Shown here: piece after piece, positions 366 through 63,399 of the stretch
Layout: every line of letters starts with the position of its first letter
Numbering within the stretch: position 1 is the stretch's first letter
NCBI GenBank assembly: GCA_964635515.1
Contig: CAZWNU010000001.1
Location: 5,068-69,067 of the forward strand
Reading direction: 5' to 3'
DNA length: 64,000 bases
DNA from: an uncultured Gammaproteobacteria bacterium
GTDB taxonomy: Bacteria; Patescibacteriota; Patescibacteriia; Patescibacteriales; JAGXOH01
The notes under the pieces: model-generated
Databases searched by the model: none
What the model was told of the DNA's origin: nothing
What the model saw: the letters and a program-made list of their open reading frames with translations, nothing else
Program-made: the position numbers and the translations under genes

Positions 366-1562
366 ATGAAAAAAATAAATATCTTAGGTGTAAACATTAC
401 TGATCTTAACAAGAAAGAAGTTGTCAAGCAAATTGAGAAAAGCGCTGAAGGCAAAGCAAAGAGCTTATTTGTTGTCACCCCGAATCCGGAGATAATTCTT
501 GAAGCAGAAAAAGATGGAGAATTTTTATTTATTCTAAACCAAGCGGACTTAGCCATTCCGGATGGGGTGGGTTTAAAATTCGCCTCTTGGTTGACTGGCC
601 ACAACCTGGCCAGGATCACCGGTGCAGACCTGACCGAAGAGATATTAAAGATAGCTGAGAGAAAAGGTTTAAGATTAGGGATAATTAAACCTCCTCGAGC
701 CCTATCTGAAAATAAAGAGATCCAAAAAGCGGTAAATAGAAAATTCCCAGAATTGAACTTTTTAATATCAGAATGCTCTTCAGAGGAGGTGGACAATTTC
801 CAAGATCAAAAAATGTTTGATTTCGAACCTGAAATAATACTAAGCACACTAGGAGCTCCTTTTCAAGAAAAATTTATCTTCCATAATTTTAAAAGATTTT
901 CTAAAATTAAACTGGGTATAGGAGTGGGGGGTTCTCTGGATTTTTTGACCGGCAAAGCGCCGCGCGCCCCTAAAACATTAAGGATATTGGGCCTAGAATG
1001 GACTTGGAGGCTTGCTAAACAACCCCGAAGATGGAAACGGATAATTAAAGCTACTCTGGTTTTTCCTTGGAAGTTTCTTAAGTGGCGCTTTTTACTTCCA
1101 TTTTTTTATCGAGATAACTTGATCTGCTTGCTTTACAAGAAAAAAAATGATAATTACAAGGTTTTGGTGGTGGAAAGAAGGGAGGGGTCTGGGAAATGGC
1201 AGATTCCTCAGGGAGGAAAAGATGGTGAAGATCTGGTCACTGCCGGATCCAGAGAGTTAAGGGAAGAACTAAATTGCCACTCTTTTATTCCAATAGCTTC
1301 CTTTAAAAAAATACATAAGTACAGGTTTCCAAGGTCTTATCCCAGACCCTCAAAACATGGGGGATACAAGGGTCAAAAACAAGATCTTTTTATAGCCGAA
1401 TTCCAGGGAAAAGATCCTGATATTAAAATAAATTTTTGGGAACATAAAAATTGGCAATGGGTAGATTACAAAGATCTAGTAAATGTGGTTGATCCCAACA
1501 GGAGAGAGGCTATGAAAAAAATCATTCAAATATTTAAAAAAAATGTTATAAATAAAAATTGA
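366..1562 (+). CDS. WecB/TagA/CpsF-family glycosyltransferase fused to a C-terminal Nudix hydrolase domain
   Basis: The first ~250 aa align along their length with WecB/TagA N-acetylmannosaminyltransferases (ILGVNI..., ADLAIPDGVGL, IGVGGSLDFLTGKAPRAPK, LGLEWTWRL). The C-terminus carries a Nudix box, GGKDGEDLVTAGSRELREEL (E-x7-REUxEE). Confidence 0.7.
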   Translation: MKKINILGVNITDLNKKEVVKQIEKSAEGKAKSLFVVTPNPEIILEAEKDGEFLFILNQADLAIPDGVGLKFASWLTGHNLARITGADLTEEILKIAERKGLRLGIIKPPRALSENKEIQKAVNRKFPELNFLISECSSEEVDNFQDQKMFDFEPEIILSTLGAPFQEKFIFHNFKRFSKIKLGIGVGGSLDFLTGKAPRAPKTLRILGLEWTWRLAKQPRRWKRIIKATLVFPWKFLKWRFLLPFFYRDNLICLLYKKKNDNYKVLVVERREGSGKWQIPQGGKDGEDLVTAGSRELREELNCHSFIPIASFKKIHKYRFPRSYPRPSKHGGYKGQKQDLFIAEFQGKDPDIKINFWEHKNWQWVDYKDLVNVVDPNRREAMKKIIQIFKKNVINKN

Positions 1563-39076: not shown

Positions 39077-40277
39077 GAGAACCAAAAACATTAAACTATC
39101 AACCATAAAAGAGATTGAACTTAAAGCAGCTCAATATCCGGATGCTATTTCTTTGGCTCAAGGAATACCTGATTTTGATACTCCTGAATTTATTAAAAGA
39201 AGAGTAGAAAGGGCTCTAAAAAGGGGGGTGGTTGCCAAATACTCATTATCACCGGGCTTGCCGGAGTTAAGGGAATTGATAGAAGAGTCCTTGGCCAAGG
39301 ATAAAATGTATTATGATTGGGAAAAAGAAGTTTTAGTTACTGCCGGTTCAATAGAAGGTATAACAGCCACTATAATGGCCATAACCAACCCAGGAGATGA
39401 AGTAATAATACCCGAGCCTACTTATACTAGTTACAGAGAAGTAATTAACCTGGCTGCTTGCAAACCTATTTTTGTTCCTTTAGATGAAGAGAGGGGATGG
39501 GGTTTTAATATAGAGGAATATAAAAAGGCTATAACAAAAAACACCAAGGCTATTTTTTATTGCAACCCTAACAACCCCACAGGAACCATATACTCTAAGG
39601 AGCAATTAATGGAATTAGCTGATTTAGCCAAAAAAAACAAACTATTCCTAATATCTGATGAGGTCTATAAAGATTTTATTTATGATCAAAAGAGCTTTTT
39701 TTCATTAGCCCAAATCCCGGAATTACGAGATAGGGTTATAAGAATATTCTCCTTCTCCAAGGCCTTTGCCATGACCGGCTGGAGGATTGGCTATCTACAC
39801 AGTGATGAGAAAAACATCAAGGAAATAACCAAAATACATGATAGCCTGGTCACTTGCGCGCCAGTGATCTCTCAATATGCCGCCATGGGAGCTCTGGAGA
39901 TAGAACAGGAGAAAGTTTTAGAATTTTGCCAAAAATACAAACAGAGAAGAGATTTAATTTGTCTAAGATTAGAGAAGTTAAAACATGTTTTTCAGTTTGT
40001 AACACCTGATAGCGCTTACTATATATTTCCAAAAATATCTCTAAAATTAGCAAAAAAAATAGAGAAGGAAAAAAATATTAATTTAACAAAAGAGGGGGGT
40101 GTGGACTCGTGGAAATTCGCTCTATGGCTACTAGAGGAAACACAAGTGGCAACAGTCCCAGGAGTGGCCTTTGGGCCGAACGGTGAGGGCCATATCAGGA
40201 TGAGCTTTGGAAGGAAAGAGGAAGATATTAATCAAGCTTTTGATAGATTGGAAAATCTATTTAATTTTCAATTATGA
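39069..40277 (+). CDS. Class I/II PLP-dependent aminotransferase (aspartate/aromatic aminotransferase-like)
   Basis: SFSKAFAMTGWRIGY carries the Schiff-base Lys; GIPDFDTP; NPNNPTG. Confidence 0.8.
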   Translation: MFERTKNIKLSTIKEIELKAAQYPDAISLAQGIPDFDTPEFIKRRVERALKRGVVAKYSLSPGLPELRELIEESLAKDKMYYDWEKEVLVTAGSIEGITATIMAITNPGDEVIIPEPTYTSYREVINLAACKPIFVPLDEERGWGFNIEEYKKAITKNTKAIFYCNPNNPTGTIYSKEQLMELADLAKKNKLFLISDEVYKDFIYDQKSFFSLAQIPELRDRVIRIFSFSKAFAMTGWRIGYLHSDEKNIKEITKIHDSLVTCAPVISQYAAMGALEIEQEKVLEFCQKYKQRRDLICLRLEKLKHVFQFVTPDSAYYIFPKISLKLAKKIEKEKNINLTKEGGVDSWKFALWLLEETQVATVPGVAFGPNGEGHIRMSFGRKEEDINQAFDRLENLFNFQL

Positions 40278-41029
40278 GAGTTATATTAAAAACACTTCTA
40301 AAAAATTATTTAAAAATAATTACCAAGATGGTACTATTTGTTCACCGTCCCACTGTAATAGCCATAGCCGGAAGTACTAATAAAAACTTTGTTAAACAAG
40401 AAATAAAAAAAATATTGAGAGAATTTAATTTTAGCACCAGGGTTAATCCCAAAAACTTTAATACTGAAATAGGTTTACCTTTGGCCATACTTTACTTGCC
40501 CAGTGGTTATAATGAATACCAAAAGTGGCTTCCTGTTATATTTAAGGCTCCCTTGAAACTATTCCAAAAAAAATTCCCCAAATTCTTAGTCTTAAGCCTG
40601 GGCACTTCGGATGAGGGGGATATGAAGTATTTGCTTTCGATAGTAAAGCCTGACATCTCCATAATTACTGACATCACCCAGAGGTACAAAGAGGGATTTT
40701 CAGATATGAACCGCTTAGTAAACGAATATGAACTACTGGCCCAGAAAACAAAAAAAGGAGGACTTATAATACTTAACTCAGATAATTACAGAGTTAAAGA
40801 AATAGGGAAAAATAAAGAACAAAGAGTATTATACTATGGCTTCAAGGAAGAATCTGATGCAAGAATCGAAAAAACAGAAAAAAACGAAAAAGGCCAGAAG
40901 ATCATACTTAGACACCAAGGAGAAAAAAGAGAAGAACAAATATATAGATTTGGCAAACATCATTCTTATGTGTTAGCTATTGGCCATATAATAAAAAAAG
41001 AGTTGAAAAACAATGCGGAGATCAGATAA
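40274..41029 (+). CDS. Truncated MurF-like Mur-ligase central domain with a degenerate P-loop
   Basis: VIAIAGSTNKNF compared with MurF VVALTGSSGKTS (the P-loop Lys/Thr are lost); NFNTEIGLPLAIL compared with NLNNDIGVPMTLL. The N- and C-terminal Mur ligase domains are absent; 251 aa. Confidence 0.55.
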   Translation: MRVILKTLLKNYLKIITKMVLFVHRPTVIAIAGSTNKNFVKQEIKKILREFNFSTRVNPKNFNTEIGLPLAILYLPSGYNEYQKWLPVIFKAPLKLFQKKFPKFLVLSLGTSDEGDMKYLLSIVKPDISIITDITQRYKEGFSDMNRLVNEYELLAQKTKKGGLIILNSDNYRVKEIGKNKEQRVLYYGFKEESDARIEKTEKNEKGQKIILRHQGEKREEQIYRFGKHHSYVLAIGHIIKKELKNNAEIR

Positions 41030-49517: not shown

Positions 49518-51221
49518 TTATTTACACCCCTTGTTCTTGGGTTTTGATTTTAATTTTAATTCTTTCCTCTGCTCATTTCTTAAACGCCTAAAACTACTTT
49601 TATTACACCTCTTTTCCGAAATCAAATTTTTCATCCAGCTTCCAGCCAAAAGGTGTGGGGTTATTATAAAATCAGCGCCTTCATTGTACAAGACATTTAA
49701 GTGTTTTATGTGAGAAAGACTTCCTATGAATATAGCCTTTTTACTGAATTTTCTCAATTGCTGAACCAGGGTCATCTGGTCTTTGAAGTCCGGGATAGTC
49801 GATATCACCATTTTTATCTTAGAAGAAAAAATATCACCCAAAAAATCAATCGCTCCGGCGTCACCAAAATAATAAGGGATTCCTCTTTGTCTCAATTTTT
49901 GAATTGCCTTAGGGTCAAAATCCACCACAGCAAAAGAAACACCAGACTCTTTTAAAGAATCGCAGATCTTCCAGCCCAAACGATGGTATCCGAATATTAA
50001 AACATCATACTTTACACCTCCACTCTCTTCAACCGCCAGAGCCTTGTCTTTGCCGAAAAACTTTTCAAAGAAGGGATTTATCTTATCAAAGATCTGTCTG
50101 TTGTAAGTAATCAAATAAGATGAGAAAAATATGGTTATTAAAGCAACCATCGTAAACAGGGTGAGATCAGTTCCGGTAACCAAATTCATATCATACAACA
50201 AAAAAAGAAGCACAAAGCCAAACTCGCTTACCTGGGCTGCTGACAAACTGGAGAGAAAACTGTTTTTTCTAGTAAACTTCATGAACCGAAAAACCGTGTA
50301 TAATATAAAAGGGTTTCCTATTAATATAAACACAGAAAGAACCAAGCCAGGCCAAAAAACTTCTTGTAAATTAGCCAATCCCATTTTACTCCCGAGTATT
50401 ATAAAGAAAAGAGCTATAAAAAAATCTCTTAATGGCCTTACTCTGCTATTTATTTCAAATTGATACTTGGAGGCCGCTAAAGAAAGTCCGGCTATCAGGG
50501 CTCCCACCTCCAAAGACAATCCAGACCACTCCGCCACACCGGAAACAATAAAACACCAGGCTAAAGCGAACATAAAAAGAAACTCCTTGGATTCGGCTAT
50601 CTTGTTTAATGTAAGTGGTAATAAAAACTTGGTCACAAGATAAACTCCCAACAAAAATAAGGAGCTTTTAGCTATCAAGGACAGGAAGGATATCACAAGA
50701 GTGTCTCCAAGATAAAATGCGGGCAAAATTATCATTATCACCACAGCCACCATATCCTGGACCAAATTCAAGCCAATAGAGTATCTTCCATAAACACTGC
50801 CTATATCACCTTTATCCGATAATATTTTAGTAGCTATGATTGTACTGGAAAAAGTTATAGATATCGCTATAAACAAAGCGGATAAAACCGGAAGACCAAA
50901 TAAAAAAATGATCAAAAAACCCAAAGATGAAGTAAAAATCACTTGGGACAGACCCGAGACTATTGAGGGTTTGCCGATTTTTTTTAAGTAATCTACGTTC
51001 AAATTTAAGCCCACCAAAAACAAAAGCATTACCACCCCGAATTTTGCAAACATCTGAAAAAAATCATGCTCCGGACTGACCAAATTCAATAACAAGGGAC
51101 CACAAATAACTCCGGTAAAAAGATAGGAGATAATAAGATGCTGTTTCAAAAGGTTAGCGATAAAAGCTATTCCGATAGCAATTCCCAGAATAATACTTAT
51201 ATCAAAAAAAATAGAGTCCAT
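49518..51221 (-). CDS. CPA2-family cation:proton antiporter with a C-terminal RCK/TrkA-N domain (Kef-type)
   Basis: 12-13 TM Na+/H+ exchanger core plus a Rossmann-like C-terminus (VLIFGYHRLGWKICDSLKESGVSFAVVDFD). Confidence 0.8.
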   Translation of the reverse strand: MDSIFFDISIILGIAIGIAFIANLLKQHLIISYLFTGVICGPLLLNLVSPEHDFFQMFAKFGVVMLLFLVGLNLNVDYLKKIGKPSIVSGLSQVIFTSSLGFLIIFLFGLPVLSALFIAISITFSSTIIATKILSDKGDIGSVYGRYSIGLNLVQDMVAVVIMIILPAFYLGDTLVISFLSLIAKSSLFLLGVYLVTKFLLPLTLNKIAESKEFLFMFALAWCFIVSGVAEWSGLSLEVGALIAGLSLAASKYQFEINSRVRPLRDFFIALFFIILGSKMGLANLQEVFWPGLVLSVFILIGNPFILYTVFRFMKFTRKNSFLSSLSAAQVSEFGFVLLFLLYDMNLVTGTDLTLFTMVALITIFFSSYLITYNRQIFDKINPFFEKFFGKDKALAVEESGGVKYDVLIFGYHRLGWKICDSLKESGVSFAVVDFDPKAIQKLRQRGIPYYFGDAGAIDFLGDIFSSKIKMVISTIPDFKDQMTLVQQLRKFSKKAIFIGSLSHIKHLNVLYNEGADFIITPHLLAGSWMKNLISEKRCNKSSFRRLRNEQRKELKLKSKPKNKGCK

Positions 51222-54029: not shown

Positions 54030-55349
54030 TTAAAAGAAAAAGGAAAAAATCATGATCAGGGCTGCTAAAAAGGGCAAGACCCTGAAAATAGTTATTGACA
54101 CTCCTGCCGCCTTCTTCCACCTGGTGCCTATGCTCTCCACAAGCTCTTTCTTAGATATACTCCAGCTGATTATGGCACCCCCTATCAAACCGGAACCCAC
54201 AACGATCTGGTTAGCTGCAAAAAGATCCAGAACTTCTAAGAAGGGCCTTCCTAAAAAAGAAAAGCCGACCGGAGTGAAGCTAAGGGCAGAAAGAAACCCC
54301 AAGGGGATAACCGGCAAGAATGAAAAAAAGGTGGCCCTTTTATGGGAAAGGTTGAACTCTTCTCTGAAAGCCGTCTTGACCACCTCCATTCCGGCAATAC
54401 AAGAACTGATAGCTGCTAGAAAAAATAAGGTGAAAAACAAGACAGCCAAATAAGCCCCAAAGGGTATAGACTCGAAGACAAGAGGAAGGGTGGTAAAGGC
54501 CAGCTTGGTCCCCTGCTCAGGATTTAAGCCAAAAGAAAAAACTATAGGGAAAATAATAATAGCTGCCAATAACGCAATTGAGGTTTCAATAGACGCTATT
54601 ATTCCGGTAGCCCTAGGCAGGTTAACGTTCCTAGGCAAAAAACTTCCGTAAGTTATTAAATAACCCTGCCCCACAGCCAGAGAGTAAAAGGCTTGTCCAA
54701 AAGCCAGGAGCCAAACATGGACACTGAAAAAAGCTTCAAGTTCAGGGGTAAATAGAAAAGACAAGGCATAGCCCGCTTTATCCAGGCTAAGGCTGTATCC
54801 AGCTAAAAAGATCACAATCAACAAAAGTACGGGCATAAGGATTTTAGCGAGAAACTCGATAGCTTTCACCCCCCTGGCCACTACGATTGAGGTCAAAAAG
54901 GCCACAACAAAGAAATAAAACAGAGAGATATACCCACTTGTAAATTCTTCAAAGGATTGAATATTACCTCTATAACTTTCAACTGCAAAACCCAGGGTCC
55001 AGCCTGTTATGGCAAAATAATAGCTCATTATTATTAAGGTCAATATGACAACTGCCCAACCAAAAATAACCGCCCTTTTGTTAAGCAACCTAAATGTTTT
55101 CACCGGACTCCCGTGCTCGGTTCTTCCGGCACTTATCTCCAGTATCATTAAAGGTATACCCAAAATCAGAACGGCTATTATATAGGCAAAAACAAAAGAA
55201 CCTCCTCCGTTTTCACCTGCTATATAGGGAAATCTCCAAATATTACCCAAACCTACAGCCGCAGCAGCGGTGGCTAAAACAAAACCTCTTTCTGAGGACC
55301 ATTGGATGGCCCTGTGACCTGTCACCTTCTCTTTTAGATTGGAAAACAT
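54030..55349 (-). CDS. Neurotransmitter:sodium symporter (NSS/SNF) family transporter
   Basis: WSSERGFVLATAAAAVGLGNIWRFPY signature. Confidence 0.85.
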   Translation of the reverse strand: MFSNLKEKVTGHRAIQWSSERGFVLATAAAAVGLGNIWRFPYIAGENGGGSFVFAYIIAVLILGIPLMILEISAGRTEHGSPVKTFRLLNKRAVIFGWAVVILTLIIMSYYFAITGWTLGFAVESYRGNIQSFEEFTSGYISLFYFFVVAFLTSIVVARGVKAIEFLAKILMPVLLLIVIFLAGYSLSLDKAGYALSFLFTPELEAFFSVHVWLLAFGQAFYSLAVGQGYLITYGSFLPRNVNLPRATGIIASIETSIALLAAIIIFPIVFSFGLNPEQGTKLAFTTLPLVFESIPFGAYLAVLFFTLFFLAAISSCIAGMEVVKTAFREEFNLSHKRATFFSFLPVIPLGFLSALSFTPVGFSFLGRPFLEVLDLFAANQIVVGSGLIGGAIISWSISKKELVESIGTRWKKAAGVSITIFRVLPFLAALIMIFSFFF

Positions 55350-59622: not shown

Positions 59623-60576
59623 TCAAGATGTTTTACTATCCTGATTGACATATATTTTTTCCAAGTGTTTTAACATTCTGGCAAACCTGGGAAATCTTGC
59701 TAAAGGGCGCAGAAACCTAACAAAAATAGCCATGTGTCTGGTCACCTCCAATCCGCCCCGAGAAAAGACCTCAAAAGCCACAGCCAGGCCTTGAAAGAAA
59801 CGGAAAACTATAAAAAAAGGTATGGTAGCGATTATATCCAACCAATATTTCCTCATAAAATCCTTGAGTTTGGGCACTTTTCTAAATTTGAAAGAGAGAT
59901 CAAGGACAAAAAACAAAATGACCGCCCAGTCAATTAAATTAAAATAAAAAGAATAAGGAGCCACCTGATCAGCATAAACAAATTCCACCACAATAGCCAC
60001 AAACAAAATAACCAGGGCATAAGGAACAGCATTATCAACCGCCCTTTCAATCTTCTGATAATAGCTAAGCTTACTTGAGTCTATTTTGGGATCTTCGATC
60101 AGGCCAAGCAAGGTGGCTATTCTTTCCACTACAAAAGCTGTCGTGGCCAAGGCTACAAAGAAAGCCAAAAGAGCCGGAATGGTAAGAATAAACTCAGTCA
60201 GGCCATACCCCCCGAGAATGAAACCAAAAGCATAAGCGACAGCCGGAGGATGAGAAGTATCTGTAATTATCAAAATAGCTATAATAAGGCCAACAGCCAA
60301 GGCCGCTTGAATACTTAAGGAGAAAGGAGACAAAGAAACAAGGAATCCTATTAAAGCCGCCCCCAGATAACTGAAAACTATTGTTTTGGGTCTGGCCGAA
60401 GGATTAGTAGGATTAAAGACCACAATAGCGGTAGTGGCGGCGAAGGAAGCAATGGCAATTCCATGGCCAATAGCTTGCTCAAAAACACTAAAAACAAAAA
60501 TCATTATCGCCATCATTAAAGCAGCAATAGACGAGGCCACAAAGGCGTGTCTGAGATGATGGTCTTTGGTCGACAT
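59623..60576 (-). CDS. HPP-family membrane domain fused to a C-terminal voltage-sensor-like (S1-S4) domain, with no pore
   Basis: HPP motif (DTSHPPAVA) in the N-terminal 4-TM half. The C-terminal half has an S2-like helix with an acidic residue (IDWAVILFFVLDLSF), an S3-like LDIIATIPFF (the D...P pattern) and an S4-like RFLRPLARFPRFARMLK, with Arg/Lys at nearly every third position. Confidence 0.5.
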   Translation of the reverse strand: MSTKDHHLRHAFVASSIAALMMAIMIFVFSVFEQAIGHGIAIASFAATTAIVVFNPTNPSARPKTIVFSYLGAALIGFLVSLSPFSLSIQAALAVGLIIAILIITDTSHPPAVAYAFGFILGGYGLTEFILTIPALLAFFVALATTAFVVERIATLLGLIEDPKIDSSKLSYYQKIERAVDNAVPYALVILFVAIVVEFVYADQVAPYSFYFNLIDWAVILFFVLDLSFKFRKVPKLKDFMRKYWLDIIATIPFFIVFRFFQGLAVAFEVFSRGGLEVTRHMAIFVRFLRPLARFPRFARMLKHLEKIYVNQDSKTS

Positions 60577-60579
60577 TTC

Positions 60580-61335
60580 TTATCTATTAATATTTAACTT
60601 CTCTACTGCCTCTCTGTAAGCGCAAAAATCACAGTTCGGATCAGGCTTGGGAAATCGAGAGGAGTCCAAGGTGTCCTTGATATCTTTTAAGGTATCTTCC
60701 AGCCAAGAATCGTCTCCGGTATAAGCGATTAAAGTGATTTTAAATTCCAACTTGGCATCGAACTTCTCAGTATCAGTGATTCCGTTACAATAGACAAAAT
60801 AACCAGTGTCGGAAACCGAATAACCATTTTGACGCAAAAGCCATTGGTAAACCTCCATCTGTCTCTTGTAACCTCTCTGCCAATCTTTATTTAATTCAGT
60901 AATATCTTCTTCCTTGGAGGTTGCCTTATAATCAACCACAATATATTCTCCTTGGGGATTTATCCAAAGATCGTCAATGGCGCCGCTGACTTGAAAACCG
61001 GTGGGTTTATGATAACATTGCACTCCTTGAAAATTACGCCTCCAGACGTCCAGATGATCATGTTTCACCGGCCGAGCGGCAATTCCATAGCGCTCAATCA
61101 ATTCATGGGTTTCACCCTTTTCTCTTAAAATATCAAATTCTTTTTTCAACAGTTCATCTACCGCTGTATTCAGAGCAAAGGGAAATCCGGGCGGACGTTT
61201 TACCCCTAATTTATTATCTAAATAAAAACAAAGCGGGCACTCTATAAACAAGTCTATCTTAGAACGACTCAGTCTCCACTTGCTGCCACCATAATTATAG
61301 GTGGCGCTACGGTTGGGATTATAAAAACTGGACAT
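60580..61335 (-). CDS. Cas4-like PD-(D/E)xK nuclease with an Fe-S cluster cysteine quartet (DUF83-like), not linked to any CRISPR
   Basis: N-terminal ...IECPLCFYL (Cas4 CPxxFY-type motif), AIDDL ... IVVDYK (D...DxK), QMEVYQ (QxxxY) and a C-terminal CDFCAY. Confidence 0.55.
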   Translation of the reverse strand: MSSFYNPNRSATYNYGGSKWRLSRSKIDLFIECPLCFYLDNKLGVKRPPGFPFALNTAVDELLKKEFDILREKGETHELIERYGIAARPVKHDHLDVWRRNFQGVQCYHKPTGFQVSGAIDDLWINPQGEYIVVDYKATSKEEDITELNKDWQRGYKRQMEVYQWLLRQNGYSVSDTGYFVYCNGITDTEKFDAKLEFKITLIAYTGDDSWLEDTLKDIKDTLDSSRFPKPDPNCDFCAYREAVEKLNINR

Positions 61336-61350
61336 AAAATCTATATATAA

Positions 61351-62109
61351 TTAAAAAGAAAAATGCTTTAACCCCTCAATTATTCCCTGAGAAAAGTTTT
61401 TTTTGGCTATATAGACACGGGAAGGGTCTCCGGAAAGATCTTTCTTTAAAGATTCAGGAGCATTACCGACTAAAACGGCCTTAAATCCAGTGCTTAAAGC
61501 TTCCAGGTCATTTCCGGAATCACCTGCATAAATAACTTCATCTTTCCCAGCCCCCAACTTCTTAGCCAAAAATTCAAGAACACCACCTTTTCCTCCTAGC
61601 CTGGGTATGATATCAACCAGCCCCAAATTTTTGACCCTGTCTTCGGAATAGATCAGTTTAGCTGGAGTATCAACCAATCTTTCTTCAATTTCCTCAAGAG
61701 CTTCCTTTTTATTGTAATCCAGCTTTAAGTAATAACTTAACTTAAAATCGGTTTGAGCTCGATCTTCTTGAAGGCTAAGGCCTGCTATACCCTTCAACTT
61801 TTTCTTCATTTCCAGCCAATTATAGGACTCGGAAAGTAGGTAATCTTCATAATCTTTATCTTTCTTCCACTCCCCTCTCCGGAGAGAATAAATGGCAGTG
61901 CCTACGTCAGATGATAGAAAATCGGTCTGAGGAAGATAATAATCAGCTAACACTTCTAAGATCATGGATAAACTTCTACCGCTGATGTAGGCGATCTTTA
62001 GATCTTTTCTTTTTTTTAGGATATCTTCCAACTCTTTTAGATCCTCTTTAACAAAAGATTCTTCCTTGGGAACAAGAGTATTATCTATATCACTGGCAAA
62101 TAGTTTCAT
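61351..62109 (-). CDS. HAD-IIB phosphatase closely resembling sucrose-phosphate phosphatase (SPP)
   Basis: ASDIDNTLV (DxDxT), YISGRS, GDSGNDLEAL; colinear with cyanobacterial SPP along its whole length. Confidence 0.65.
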   Translation of the reverse strand: MKLFASDIDNTLVPKEESFVKEDLKELEDILKKRKDLKIAYISGRSLSMILEVLADYYLPQTDFLSSDVGTAIYSLRRGEWKKDKDYEDYLLSESYNWLEMKKKLKGIAGLSLQEDRAQTDFKLSYYLKLDYNKKEALEEIEERLVDTPAKLIYSEDRVKNLGLVDIIPRLGGKGGVLEFLAKKLGAGKDEVIYAGDSGNDLEALSTGFKAVLVGNAPESLKKDLSGDPSRVYIAKKNFSQGIIEGLKHFSF

Positions 62110-63314
62110 ATTATCTTACCTGATTTAAAAGCAAATATTTGACCGGCGGCGTTCCAAGCCATATATGGAGTCCCTTCGGGTGTTTTTTTCTTACCGTGAA
62201 GATACTCATAAAAACCCCAACTACCACCCTCCCTTCGGTCCAGATAGTTGGCTTTAGTGATCTCTTCTAAACAATGCTCAGCCAGATCTTTTCGATCGGA
62301 TCTTCTCAGTGCTGCCGCGTAAAAACCGTTTATCATTGGCCACAGGCCTCCATTGTGATTTAAATAGGGCTTGTTTTTGAACTCGAACAAAAAGGAAACC
62401 TGAAGTTCTTCCCAATCCTTGTCACCTCTCTTAATTATTGGATAAAAAGCGGGGATTAACGAGTTTTGGGAAATTTCAGTCGCATACTCTATTATTTTTT
62501 GACTCTGCTCTTTAGTGGACAGACCAAAAAGAATAACCAAAGAATTGGCAAAAAAATCAAATCTTTTGGTTTCAACGTCAAAGGACTCTATCCAATAACT
62601 ACTGTTTTTATTTAACTTATCAAATATAGCTTGATGATAAATATATTTCCTGTCTTTTTTCTCAACCTTGTCCGGTCCGAAATTGACCTCAATCCTTCGT
62701 TTTAATTTGTTTTTCTTCTTAACCCAATAACTAAAAGAATCACCCCTGACCTTCCTTATCTTAATAAACTCGGTTAAGGCTTGATAATAAAGAACTTGAT
62801 CATAAAGCAGATAACCCTGTCTGGGCATTTCATCAGCCCAGTCGCCGGATCTGGGTACGAAAATGAAGCCCCTTTGATTGAATTCCCAAGATTCAAGAAG
62901 GGAGATAACCTTGACTATTGCTGGATAGTGAAGATCCAAAAACTCCTGGTCCCGAGTTTGATTGTAATATTTGACACAACCAAGAACATACCATAAAGGC
63001 GAGTCGACTCGACCAGCCAGAGTACCATAACTCACCCTCTTGCTTTCGGGACTGACATTGCTGGGAATCTCTCCTTGCCTGCCCTGAAACTTTAAAAGAG
63101 TATCCAGGGTTTTTCTAAAAGCATTGATCAATCTTTCCTCCCCGGTGAGAAGAGCCGCTAGTCCGGTAATAACCCCGTCTCTCGCCCAAACCCTTCTGTA
63201 ATTAGCTCTTTTCTTGGAAGAGGCATAAAAACCATGCTCAGAAGAACATTTATACAAGAGATCAATCGACTTTTTATATCCGACACGAGGCAAATCCATC
63301 ATAAAAACCTTCAT
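62106..63314 (-). CDS. GH100-like (alpha/alpha)6-barrel glycoside hydrolase (neutral/alkaline invertase-like)
   Basis: YRRVWARDGVI, KTLDTLLKFQGRQGEIPS, HNGGLWP, and a C-terminal region with a WG..EY...GK pattern (YMAWNAAGQ); these are all shared with plant and cyanobacterial neutral invertases. Confidence 0.5.
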   Translation of the reverse strand: MKVFMMDLPRVGYKKSIDLLYKCSSEHGFYASSKKRANYRRVWARDGVITGLAALLTGEERLINAFRKTLDTLLKFQGRQGEIPSNVSPESKRVSYGTLAGRVDSPLWYVLGCVKYYNQTRDQEFLDLHYPAIVKVISLLESWEFNQRGFIFVPRSGDWADEMPRQGYLLYDQVLYYQALTEFIKIRKVRGDSFSYWVKKKNKLKRRIEVNFGPDKVEKKDRKYIYHQAIFDKLNKNSSYWIESFDVETKRFDFFANSLVILFGLSTKEQSQKIIEYATEISQNSLIPAFYPIIKRGDKDWEELQVSFLFEFKNKPYLNHNGGLWPMINGFYAAALRRSDRKDLAEHCLEEITKANYLDRREGGSWGFYEYLHGKKKTPEGTPYMAWNAAGQIFAFKSGKII

Positions 63315-63399
63315 TTAGAACCTTTTAATAAATTCGGAGTTAACTTTATTTTATTATACTAAGACCCATTTGTAAACGCAGATAGAAACTGATAAAGGA

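Follow-up and report, generated by a model that had tools for sequence, protein, structure and literature searches.

Sequence analysis of a 64,000-nucleotide stretch of metagenomic DNA (contig CAZWNU010000001.1; this whole stretch is called the window below) identified a glycoside hydrolase (GH) gene and a phosphatase gene that form a conserved, translationally coupled two-gene module. The hydrolase is related to the GH100 neutral invertases and the phosphatase to sucrose-phosphate phosphatase (SPP), and synthesis and turnover of sucrose is the best reading of the pair, one that our data make fairly probable. A nuclease gene lies directly downstream, and the stretch is rather probably made up of two independent things, a sucrose module and a housekeeping stand-alone Cas4-like nuclease. 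The window belongs to a 70 kb metagenomic contig from a Patescibacteria/Candidate Phyla Radiation (CPR) bacterium and contains DUF5656, which is typical of CPR. The features in question are the following:

62106-63314, minus strand: cytoplasmic alpha-glucosidase with an (alpha/alpha)6 fold, GH100-like and from a divergent bacterial clade; putatively a 'neutral invertase' that hydrolyses sucrose (Pfam, profile and fold evidence)
62106-62109, minus strand: ATGA stop/start overlap of the GH and phosphatase genes, indicating translational coupling (direct sequence reading)
61351-62109, minus strand: S6PP-family HAD-IIB phosphatase, putative sucrose-6F-phosphate phosphatase (Pfam, PDB profile match, motifs)
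60580-61335, minus strand: stand-alone RecB/Cas4-superfamily PD-(D/E)xK nuclease with a CxxC...CxxC metal site (PDDEXK_1 match)

The three open reading frames (ORFs) lie back to back and encode 402, 252 and 251 amino acids for the GH, the phosphatase and the nuclease, respectively. An earlier sequence-only reading of this DNA had described three consecutive minus-strand genes with these motifs, and both the positions and the motifs were found as it gave them. The 4-nt overlap that it reported between the GH and phosphatase genes was also seen directly: the GH gene ends in ...ggt aag ata ata TGA, and the phosphatase ATG lies inside ATATGA. The gap between the phosphatase and nuclease genes is 15 nt, and only 3 nt separate the nuclease gene from the next gene, which encodes a membrane protein with an HPP domain.

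The best Pfam match of the GH was Glyco_hydro_100 (PF12899; 71.9 bits, cut-off 23.6). It also passed the cut-offs of GDE_C (30.3 vs 21) and MGH1-like (33.3 vs 27), both of which were weaker than GH100. When the PDB was searched with a profile of 30 GH homologues, only GH100 structures gave strong matches, namely InvB (5z73, E 3e-19), InvA (E 1e-15) and Arabidopsis CINV1 (E 5e-14). The AlphaFold (AF2) model of the GH (pLDDT 81, pTM 0.87) gave a Foldseek list against the PDB in which ranks 1-24 were all GH100 (TM 0.63-0.70), and the next matches, rhamnosidases and a GH63 mannosylglycerate hydrolase, had E values of ~1e-6, three orders of magnitude weaker. Because GH100 was best in Pfam, in the PDB profile search and in the top 24 Foldseek matches, assignments to GH63, MGH1 and GDE_C were rejected, and the sequence-only reading was right to call the protein GH100 rather than GH63 or GDE_C.

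Four residues of the GH, D161 (in GDWADE), E370 (in FxEY; FYEY here), W325 and W387, are invariant in the 30 homologues, and the profile alignment places InvA D188 on D161, E414 on E370, and W376/W434 on W325/W387. The predicted roles are acid for D161, base for E370 and platform for W325 and W387, with D46 (in RDG) as the candidate fixer. The glucose (-1) subsite is common to GH37, GH63 and GH100, which belong to clan GH-G, whereas the +1 subsite varies and sets the specificity (bioRxiv 10.64898/2026.07.01.735942). Given the conserved glucose subsite and the fact that the nearest relatives are GH100 enzymes, the GH can safely be predicted to belong to the GH100 lineage and to act as an inverting alpha-glucosidase. 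Its N-terminus, when read, shows no evident signal peptide. In comparison with the GH100 invertases (Anabaena InvA, 5GOO/5GOP, and InvB, 5Z73; Arabidopsis CINV, 6TTJ), the GH has the same single-domain (alpha/alpha)6 barrel and the aligned Asp, Glu and two Trp residues, but it is only ~20% identical and ~60 residues shorter. It also falls in a separate clade that extends across many non-cyanobacterial phyla, sits in a fixed operon with a phosphatase, and has a substrate that is putative. The same fold is found in the compatible-solute hydrolases of clan GH-G (GH63 mannosylglycerate/glucosylglycerate hydrolases; T. thermophilus 4WVA), and the physiological logic would be the same, that of a cytoplasmic hydrolase removing an osmolyte. 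However, these enzymes are clearly more distant from the GH than GH100 is, and the partner phosphatase in the window is not of the mannosyl-3-phosphoglycerate phosphatase (MPGP) type.

The phosphatase matched Pfam S6PP (PF05116) with 171.4 bits (cut-off 20.3), with residues 2-252 aligned to model positions 3-247 of 247, and its best PDB match was Synechocystis SPP (1s2o, E 1e-17, full length, 28% identity). Its HAD motifs are complete: motif I is D7-x-D9-x-T11, motif II is S43-G-R45, the conserved lysine is K174, and motif IV is G196-D-S-G-N-D201. The cap motif reads Q114..Q119..K123-x-S125-Y126, and the SPP cap positions Q107, Q112, K116, S118 and Y119, like the HAD motifs, are kept at 95-100% in 61 partner phosphatases of GH homologues, the window protein included. 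SPP models were the best NCBIfam match for all 11 of the partner phosphatases scored. Mannosyl-3-phosphoglycerate phosphatase was rejected on its scores (TIGR01486, 24.5 vs 164.75; TIGR02461, 20.0 vs 244.35), which agrees with the SPP-colinear S6PP family identity proposed from the letters alone. Set against Synechocystis SPP (Slr0953, 1S2O, TIGR01485), the window phosphatase shares the HAD-IIB core and cap, is collinear over the full length, and keeps motifs I-IV and the cap residues. It differs in that its gene overlaps a hydrolase gene and in that it scores, as do the partner phosphatases scored, below the TIGR01485 cut-off.

To place the pair in a wider context, GTDB species genomes were scanned for GH homologues. 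Analysis covered 80 loci with 10 kb flanks, plus earlier ones, and 81 non-redundant loci were counted. The GH has at least 1449 homologues of 386-455 aa, under names as varied as 'amylo-alpha-1,6-glucosidase', 'GH100 family protein' and 'GH15', and the GTDB scan showed a homologue in at least 592 species. The carriers include Guyparkeria, Halothiobacillus, Thiohalophilus, Thiohalorhabdus, Desulfobacterales, Planctomycetota, Verrucomicrobiota and one Woesearchaeota bin, as well as Falkowbacteria, Nealsonbacteria, Saccharibacteria, Peribacteria and Gracilibacteria of the CPR; many of them are halophilic or were sampled from saline or soda-lake sites. An S6PP-like phosphatase adjoins the GH on the same strand in 58 of the 81 loci (58 of the 75 that were testable, 6 being untestable), downstream of the GH in 51 and upstream in 7. 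The paired loci span CPR, Desulfobacterota, Gammaproteobacteria, Planctomycetota, Verrucomicrobiota and one DPANN bin, and all-against-all clustering of the flank ORFs showed that this phosphatase is the only family accompanying the GH across phyla. The earlier remark that such a pair is unexpected in a reduced genome was thus overstated, as the GH recurs in all these species, five CPR lineages among them, and the view of GH100 as largely cyanobacterial and plant fails for the divergent clade to which the window GH belongs.

Support for a tie between this module and sucrose comes from the genes around homologous pairs. Glycosyltransferases of the sucrose-phosphate synthase (SPS) type, of two kinds, are located within 10 kb in 11 of the 81 loci. 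The first kind is a two-domain SPS of ~720 aa beside the module, which scored 677-680 bits with TIGR02472 (cut-off 576) in seven gammaproteobacterial loci:

L049, L053, L055, L067, L074, L080 and L084: two-domain SPS, all seven with a degenerate SPP-like domain

The closest solved structure to the SPS of L049, the one of the seven that was queried, is H. orenii SPS. In the SPP-like domain of all seven, either the nucleophile Asp is replaced by Ala or Glu, or GDSGND is changed to GGSG(T/A)D or GGTAAE. These synthases must therefore rely on another, active phosphatase, for which the S6PP-like gene next to them is the obvious candidate. In four of the seven loci, a second copy of the GH lies beyond the SPS. 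The second kind is a 415-448 aa GT4 glycosyltransferase in the module operon of Gracilibacteria, Peribacteria and two unclassified bins. For the Peribacteria enzyme (L013), the one that was queried, the best solved relative is the T. elongatus SPS Tll1590 (6kih, E 1e-76, vs 5e-63 for MshA), an enzyme that is experimentally active. The Gracilibacteria locus additionally carries a ROK sugar kinase. Two other GT4 genes near a GH (L042 and L066) are Mgs-like and unrelated to SPS and were not counted.

Bacterial sucrose gene clusters, in which SPS with SPP, a fructokinase and a cleaving enzyme such as amylosucrase or sucrose synthase occur together, are known in cyanobacteria and proteobacteria. 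The loci described here resemble them in that genes for the synthesis and the breakdown of one solute would adjoin each other, with SPS in 11 homologous loci and a ROK kinase in Gracilibacteria. They differ in that the cleaving enzyme is GH100-like, in that the fixed core is a hydrolase and a phosphatase, and in that the synthase is usually not adjacent, as in the window.

Because homologous pairs occur with SPS in 11 loci, seven of them with a degenerate SPP-like domain, sucrose synthesis and turnover is the best reading of the pair. An SPS (UDP-glucose:fructose-6-P glucosyltransferase) encoded elsewhere in the genome would make sucrose-6F-phosphate, from which the S6PP-family phosphatase would strip the phosphate to yield free sucrose. 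The sucrose would serve as a compatible solute in a saline habitat, and the GH100-like enzyme would split it into glucose and fructose when the solute has to be removed or recycled into glycolysis. The ground under this scheme is observed: both proteins belong to their families at the Pfam level, their catalytic residues are intact, their pairing is conserved, and orthologous pairs stand beside two kinds of SPS in other genomes. That sucrose is the actual substrate, that its role is osmotic and that this organism has an SPS is what we infer. The sequence-only reading had taken the pair to imply sucrose synthesis and turnover; the genome context elsewhere speaks for that claim, and the part that found no support is local, since no SPS is found on the contig and both enzymes fall below equivalog-level thresholds.

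Several observations weigh against sucrose as the substrate. In terms of the GH, its identity to characterised invertases is only 19-22%, its PF12899 match falls in two stretches of which the best spans only model positions 229-393 of 435, and the NCBIfam scan gave no match at all. The sequence does not fix its aglycone, specificity in clan GH-G being decided by the +1 (aglycone) subsite. The phosphatase falls below the NCBIfam SPP equivalog cut-offs (TIGR01485, 110.9 vs 183.65; TIGR01482, 75.3 vs 107.15), and the HAD-IIB model alone passes, although the SPP equivalogs are still its best matches. In terms of context, 17 GH loci lack an adjacent phosphatase, and the CPR-type GT4 enzymes scored higher with the NCBIfam model for MshA (280-308 bits) than with the SPS-N model (140-147 bits). 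The sequence-only reading had called for a search of the genome for SPS; tblastn of the window and a further 5.4 kb of the contig turned up no SPS of either kind and no ROK kinase, and the closest CPR relatives likewise showed none within flanks of 10 kb. A literature search found no characterised member of either the GH or the phosphatase subfamily. The low TIGR01485 score can be set aside: the partner phosphatases beside true SPS score 93-116 bits, as low as the window protein, and because of this the sub-threshold score is a trait of the subfamily and no argument against SPP function. With no SPS nearby, with the unpaired loci, and with relatives that carry a second hydrolase (described below), sucrose is therefore held to be fairly probable and nothing firmer, with smaller shares going to another alpha-glucoside and to salvage.

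The first of these alternatives is that the pair makes and degrades some other alpha-glucoside with a phosphorylated precursor, such as glucosyl-inositol, a glucosylglycerol-type solute or a novel disaccharide, with the CPR GT4 being MshA-like. This is a minority possibility. It would account for the position of both enzymes below equivalog thresholds and for the preference of the CPR operon GT4 for the MshA model, and it is compatible with the rule in clan GH-G that the glucose subsite alone is conserved and the +1 subsite sets specificity. The SPP cap reportedly binds the glucose ring and hence would tolerate other glucosides. Yet SPP models rank first for every partner phosphatase scored, GH100 is by far the nearest fold, and the MPGP, GH63 and MGH1 scores are weak. 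Moreover, a true SPS with a dead phosphatase domain lies beside the orthologous pair in 7 loci, and among solved structures the active T. elongatus SPS is a closer relative of the queried CPR-type GT4 than MshA is.

In a neighbour-joining tree, the window GH clusters with homologues from Falkowbacteria, Saccharibacteria and Nealsonbacteria; the next group holds unclassified bins, a second Falkowbacteria bin and the Woesearchaeota bin, and Peribacteria and Gracilibacteria branch elsewhere. The sequence-only reading had proposed a GH phylogeny as a way to detect horizontal transfer; the patchy distribution points to a module that has spread laterally, but not to a recent transfer into the window genome. 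Two GH-phosphatase pairs that group with the CPR clade of the tree come from a Candidatus Woesearchaeota bin (L012) and a 'Gammaproteobacteria' bin (L011), and these reflect either transfer among ultra-small organisms or mis-binning. The closest CPR relatives have 54-68% GH identity among the matches listed, and three of them show the arrangement GH-phosphatase-GH', in which the second hydrolase (GH') has 356-378 aa:

L007, 2175-3308: GH'
L089, 7523-8659: GH'
L090, 8539-9609: GH'

GH' is a distant paralogue with 23-25% identity to the first GH, and its best Pfam matches are GH116/GDE_C. The window has no GH', and the nuclease gene follows the phosphatase gene instead. It is conceivable, and we think unlikely, that the pair, as a mobile and self-contained unit, has been spreading among halophiles and ultra-small symbionts (CPR, DPANN), and that a CPR organism without a synthase uses it either on a sugar or sugar phosphate derived from a host or to make and degrade some alpha-glucoside that is not sucrose. 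If so, the large GH100-like clade would have a specificity or a physiological role not yet described for GH100.

A salvage function, which we consider quite unlikely, would fit a CPR cell that lacks a synthase: the GH would split imported sucrose for glycolysis, and the phosphatase would take an imported or side-product sugar phosphate. That no SPS lies on the 70 kb contig or, in the closest CPR relatives, within flanks of 10 kb points in this direction, as do the reduced state of CPR genomes and the gene content of the window, with only housekeeping and lower glycolysis genes; the GH' after the phosphatase in the closest relatives hints at catabolism. However, it is not obvious what a phosphatase would do in sucrose catabolism, and this one retains all catalytic residues and is translationally coupled to the GH. 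In addition, Gracilibacteria and Peribacteria have the synthase in the same operon, and no sugar transporter is adjacent in the window. A mannosylfructose-type pathway, in which the phosphatase would be a mannosylfructose-phosphate phosphatase, is very improbable: the enzymes of the Agrobacterium mannosylfructose pathway are SPS/SPP homologues, the S6PP Pfam family covers such phosphatases and the SPP equivalog thresholds are not reached, but the GH retains the glucose subsite of clan GH-G common to the GH100, GH63 and GH37 alpha-glucosidases, and the neighbouring synthases pass the SPS equivalog-domain cut-off.

If the pair does serve sucrose synthesis and turnover, then a metabolism whose discussion usually centres on cyanobacteria, plants and some proteobacteria would reach into reduced CPR genomes and many other phyla of saline habitats. 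The GH100-type invertases would also gain a large, unstudied bacterial sister clade; a recent survey reported no such GH100-type homologues beyond the cyanobacteria and proteobacteria (PMC10661998). With its fixed order of hydrolase and phosphatase, the operon would provide a simple and testable model for how the making and the removal of an osmolyte are balanced. The GH and the phosphatase are divergent members of the known GH100 and SPP families, and the pair is probably sucrose-related. Literature searches on sucrose in CPR, on soda-lake CPR, on halophilic gammaproteobacterial invertases and on Guyparkeria returned nothing specific.

The nuclease encoded downstream matched PDDEXK_1 (PF12705) with 63 bits (cut-off 22), with residues 21-242 aligned to model positions 1-244 of 247. 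The Cas4/DUF83 profile support that the sequence-only reading had named as a check fell short of the curated thresholds (PF01930, 20.5 vs 22.7; TIGR00372, 38.9 vs 65), and the protein belongs to the pfam12705 branch instead. The PADLOC Cas4 models do match it (E 8e-12), PADLOC having no curated cut-off for them. All the motifs that had been described were found, namely the CPxCFYL, D...DxK and QxxxY motifs and the C-terminal Cys pair: C33-P-L-C36-F-Y-L, D121/D122, D135-Y-K137, Q159-x3-Y163 and C235-D-F-C238 are invariant or nearly so in 26 homologues. The four conserved cysteines (C33, C36, C235 and C238), the number that a Cas4 Fe-S module needs, are spaced CxxC...CxxC and may bind either Fe-S or Zn. 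The arrangement in Cas4, AddB and EXO5 is a different one, with a single N-terminal Cys plus CxxCx5C. A phmmer search gave no significant match in the PDB, and the predicted fold (pLDDT 88.5) showed a loose Foldseek likeness (TM <=0.51) to the AdnAB nuclease domain, Cas4, MGME1, EXO5 and lambda exonuclease. Its homologues, of ~250 aa, number more than 8000 and are 62-82% identical across Patescibacteria classes, a conservation far above that of the sugar genes.

The tandem-repeat scan of the window gave only short 2-copy repeats and no CRISPR-like array, and no cas family was found at the Pfam level among the 54 window ORFs of at least 150 aa, a precomputed Pfam list of genes being used from 52 kb onward. 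These results agree with the earlier statement that the 64 kb contain neither a CRISPR array nor other cas genes. The neighbours of nuclease homologues in three other CPR genomes are wholly different, and no cas genes or CRISPR were found near them. CPR and DPANN genomes without CRISPR-Cas commonly carry solo genes of the Cas4 family, and no CRISPR association is reported for the pfam12705 branch (Hudaiberdiev et al. 2017, PMC5704561). The window nuclease shares with these solo genes its stand-alone position with no CRISPR-Cas nearby, its PD-(D/E)xK motifs, its four cysteines and its over-representation in small-genome lineages. It is a stand-alone housekeeping, or core, Patescibacteria gene of the pfam12705 branch, a pattern that was already known and to which nothing new is added here. 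The enzyme would probably process DNA ends in repair or recombination, with a four-cysteine metal cluster that may staple the N- and C-terminal helices together.

The arrangement of the genes could suggest that the nuclease is functionally part of the pair, in one operon with a shared role in a defence or stress island. The genes share a strand and are only 15 and 3 nt apart, and they have one promoter-like site, upstream of the GH, and no terminator-like site inside. A functional link, on which the sequence-only reading took no side, is nevertheless highly improbable. None of the 80 other GH loci contains the nuclease gene, the HPP gene or the DUF362 gene upstream, the neighbours of the nuclease in the three CPR genomes are unrelated, and its conservation across CPR classes far exceeds that of the pair. 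Since the neighbouring genes also have no PADLOC matches, both the functional tie and the defence-island reading were rejected, and the best explanation for the nuclease gene lying beside the module is that the genome is tightly packed. Two further features of this region are listed here:

63348-63376, minus strand: sigma-70-like promoter match TTTACA-17-TAAAAT, 10/12 (consensus match only)
59623-60576, minus strand: membrane protein with an HPP domain and a voltage-sensor-like C-terminal half (TM_HPP, partial Ion_trans)

The promoter-like site is the best minus-strand match of the region and lies 34 nt upstream of the GH start; the scan behind it is a match to the consensus only and found 15 sites vs 10.6 expected. 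No minus-strand terminator-like site was found between it and position 59623, past the HPP gene, which is probably in the same transcript as the nuclease yet outside the GH-phosphatase module. The HPP protein has 317 aa, with an N-terminal HPP domain (TM_HPP, 60.8 bits). Its C-terminal 160 aa match the S1-S4 part of Ion_trans (positions 10-114) with 24.3 bits vs a cut-off of 25, and it has a helix with an arginine at every third residue (RFLRPLARFPRFARMLK). From its sequence, the C-terminal half looks like a voltage-sensor domain without a pore.

A few observations were made on the surroundings of the module in other genomes. In the Halothiobacillus/Guyparkeria loci (L024, L030-L032, L036, L044, L052, L059-L061, L063 and L079), a GAPDH gene and a major facilitator superfamily transporter gene precede the module, and the latter could be a sugar transporter. 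In L024, the only annotated one of these loci, a divergent LysR regulator follows the module. Beyond the end of the window, ~1 kb upstream of the GH, lies a gene for an HGSNAT_cat-type membrane acyltransferase (L001, 4427-5152). A Gracilibacteria counterpart, also HGSNAT_cat-type (L004, 2854-3612; 31% identity to the L001 copy), is a few kb from the module there, and the presence of this gene near the module in both may be coincidental.

The other genes of the window are housekeeping genes and include gyrB, RF1, FtsW, Ddl, aminoacyl-tRNA synthetases, CTP synthase, PGK, enolase and iPGM. The G+C content is even at 35-40%, with no compositional island, and Rfam and tRNA scans of the window gave no matches. 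A KefB-like Na+/H+ exchanger with a TrkA_N domain (49518-51221, minus strand) and an SNF-family sodium symporter (54030-55349, minus strand) are consistent with life at raised salinity. A 251-aa ORF with the Mur ligase middle domain only (40274-41029, plus strand) is short for its family and could be a split, truncated or unusual gene. At the start of the window, a 398-aa ORF (366-1562, plus strand) fuses a WecG/TagA-type glycosyltransferase domain to a NUDIX hydrolase domain.

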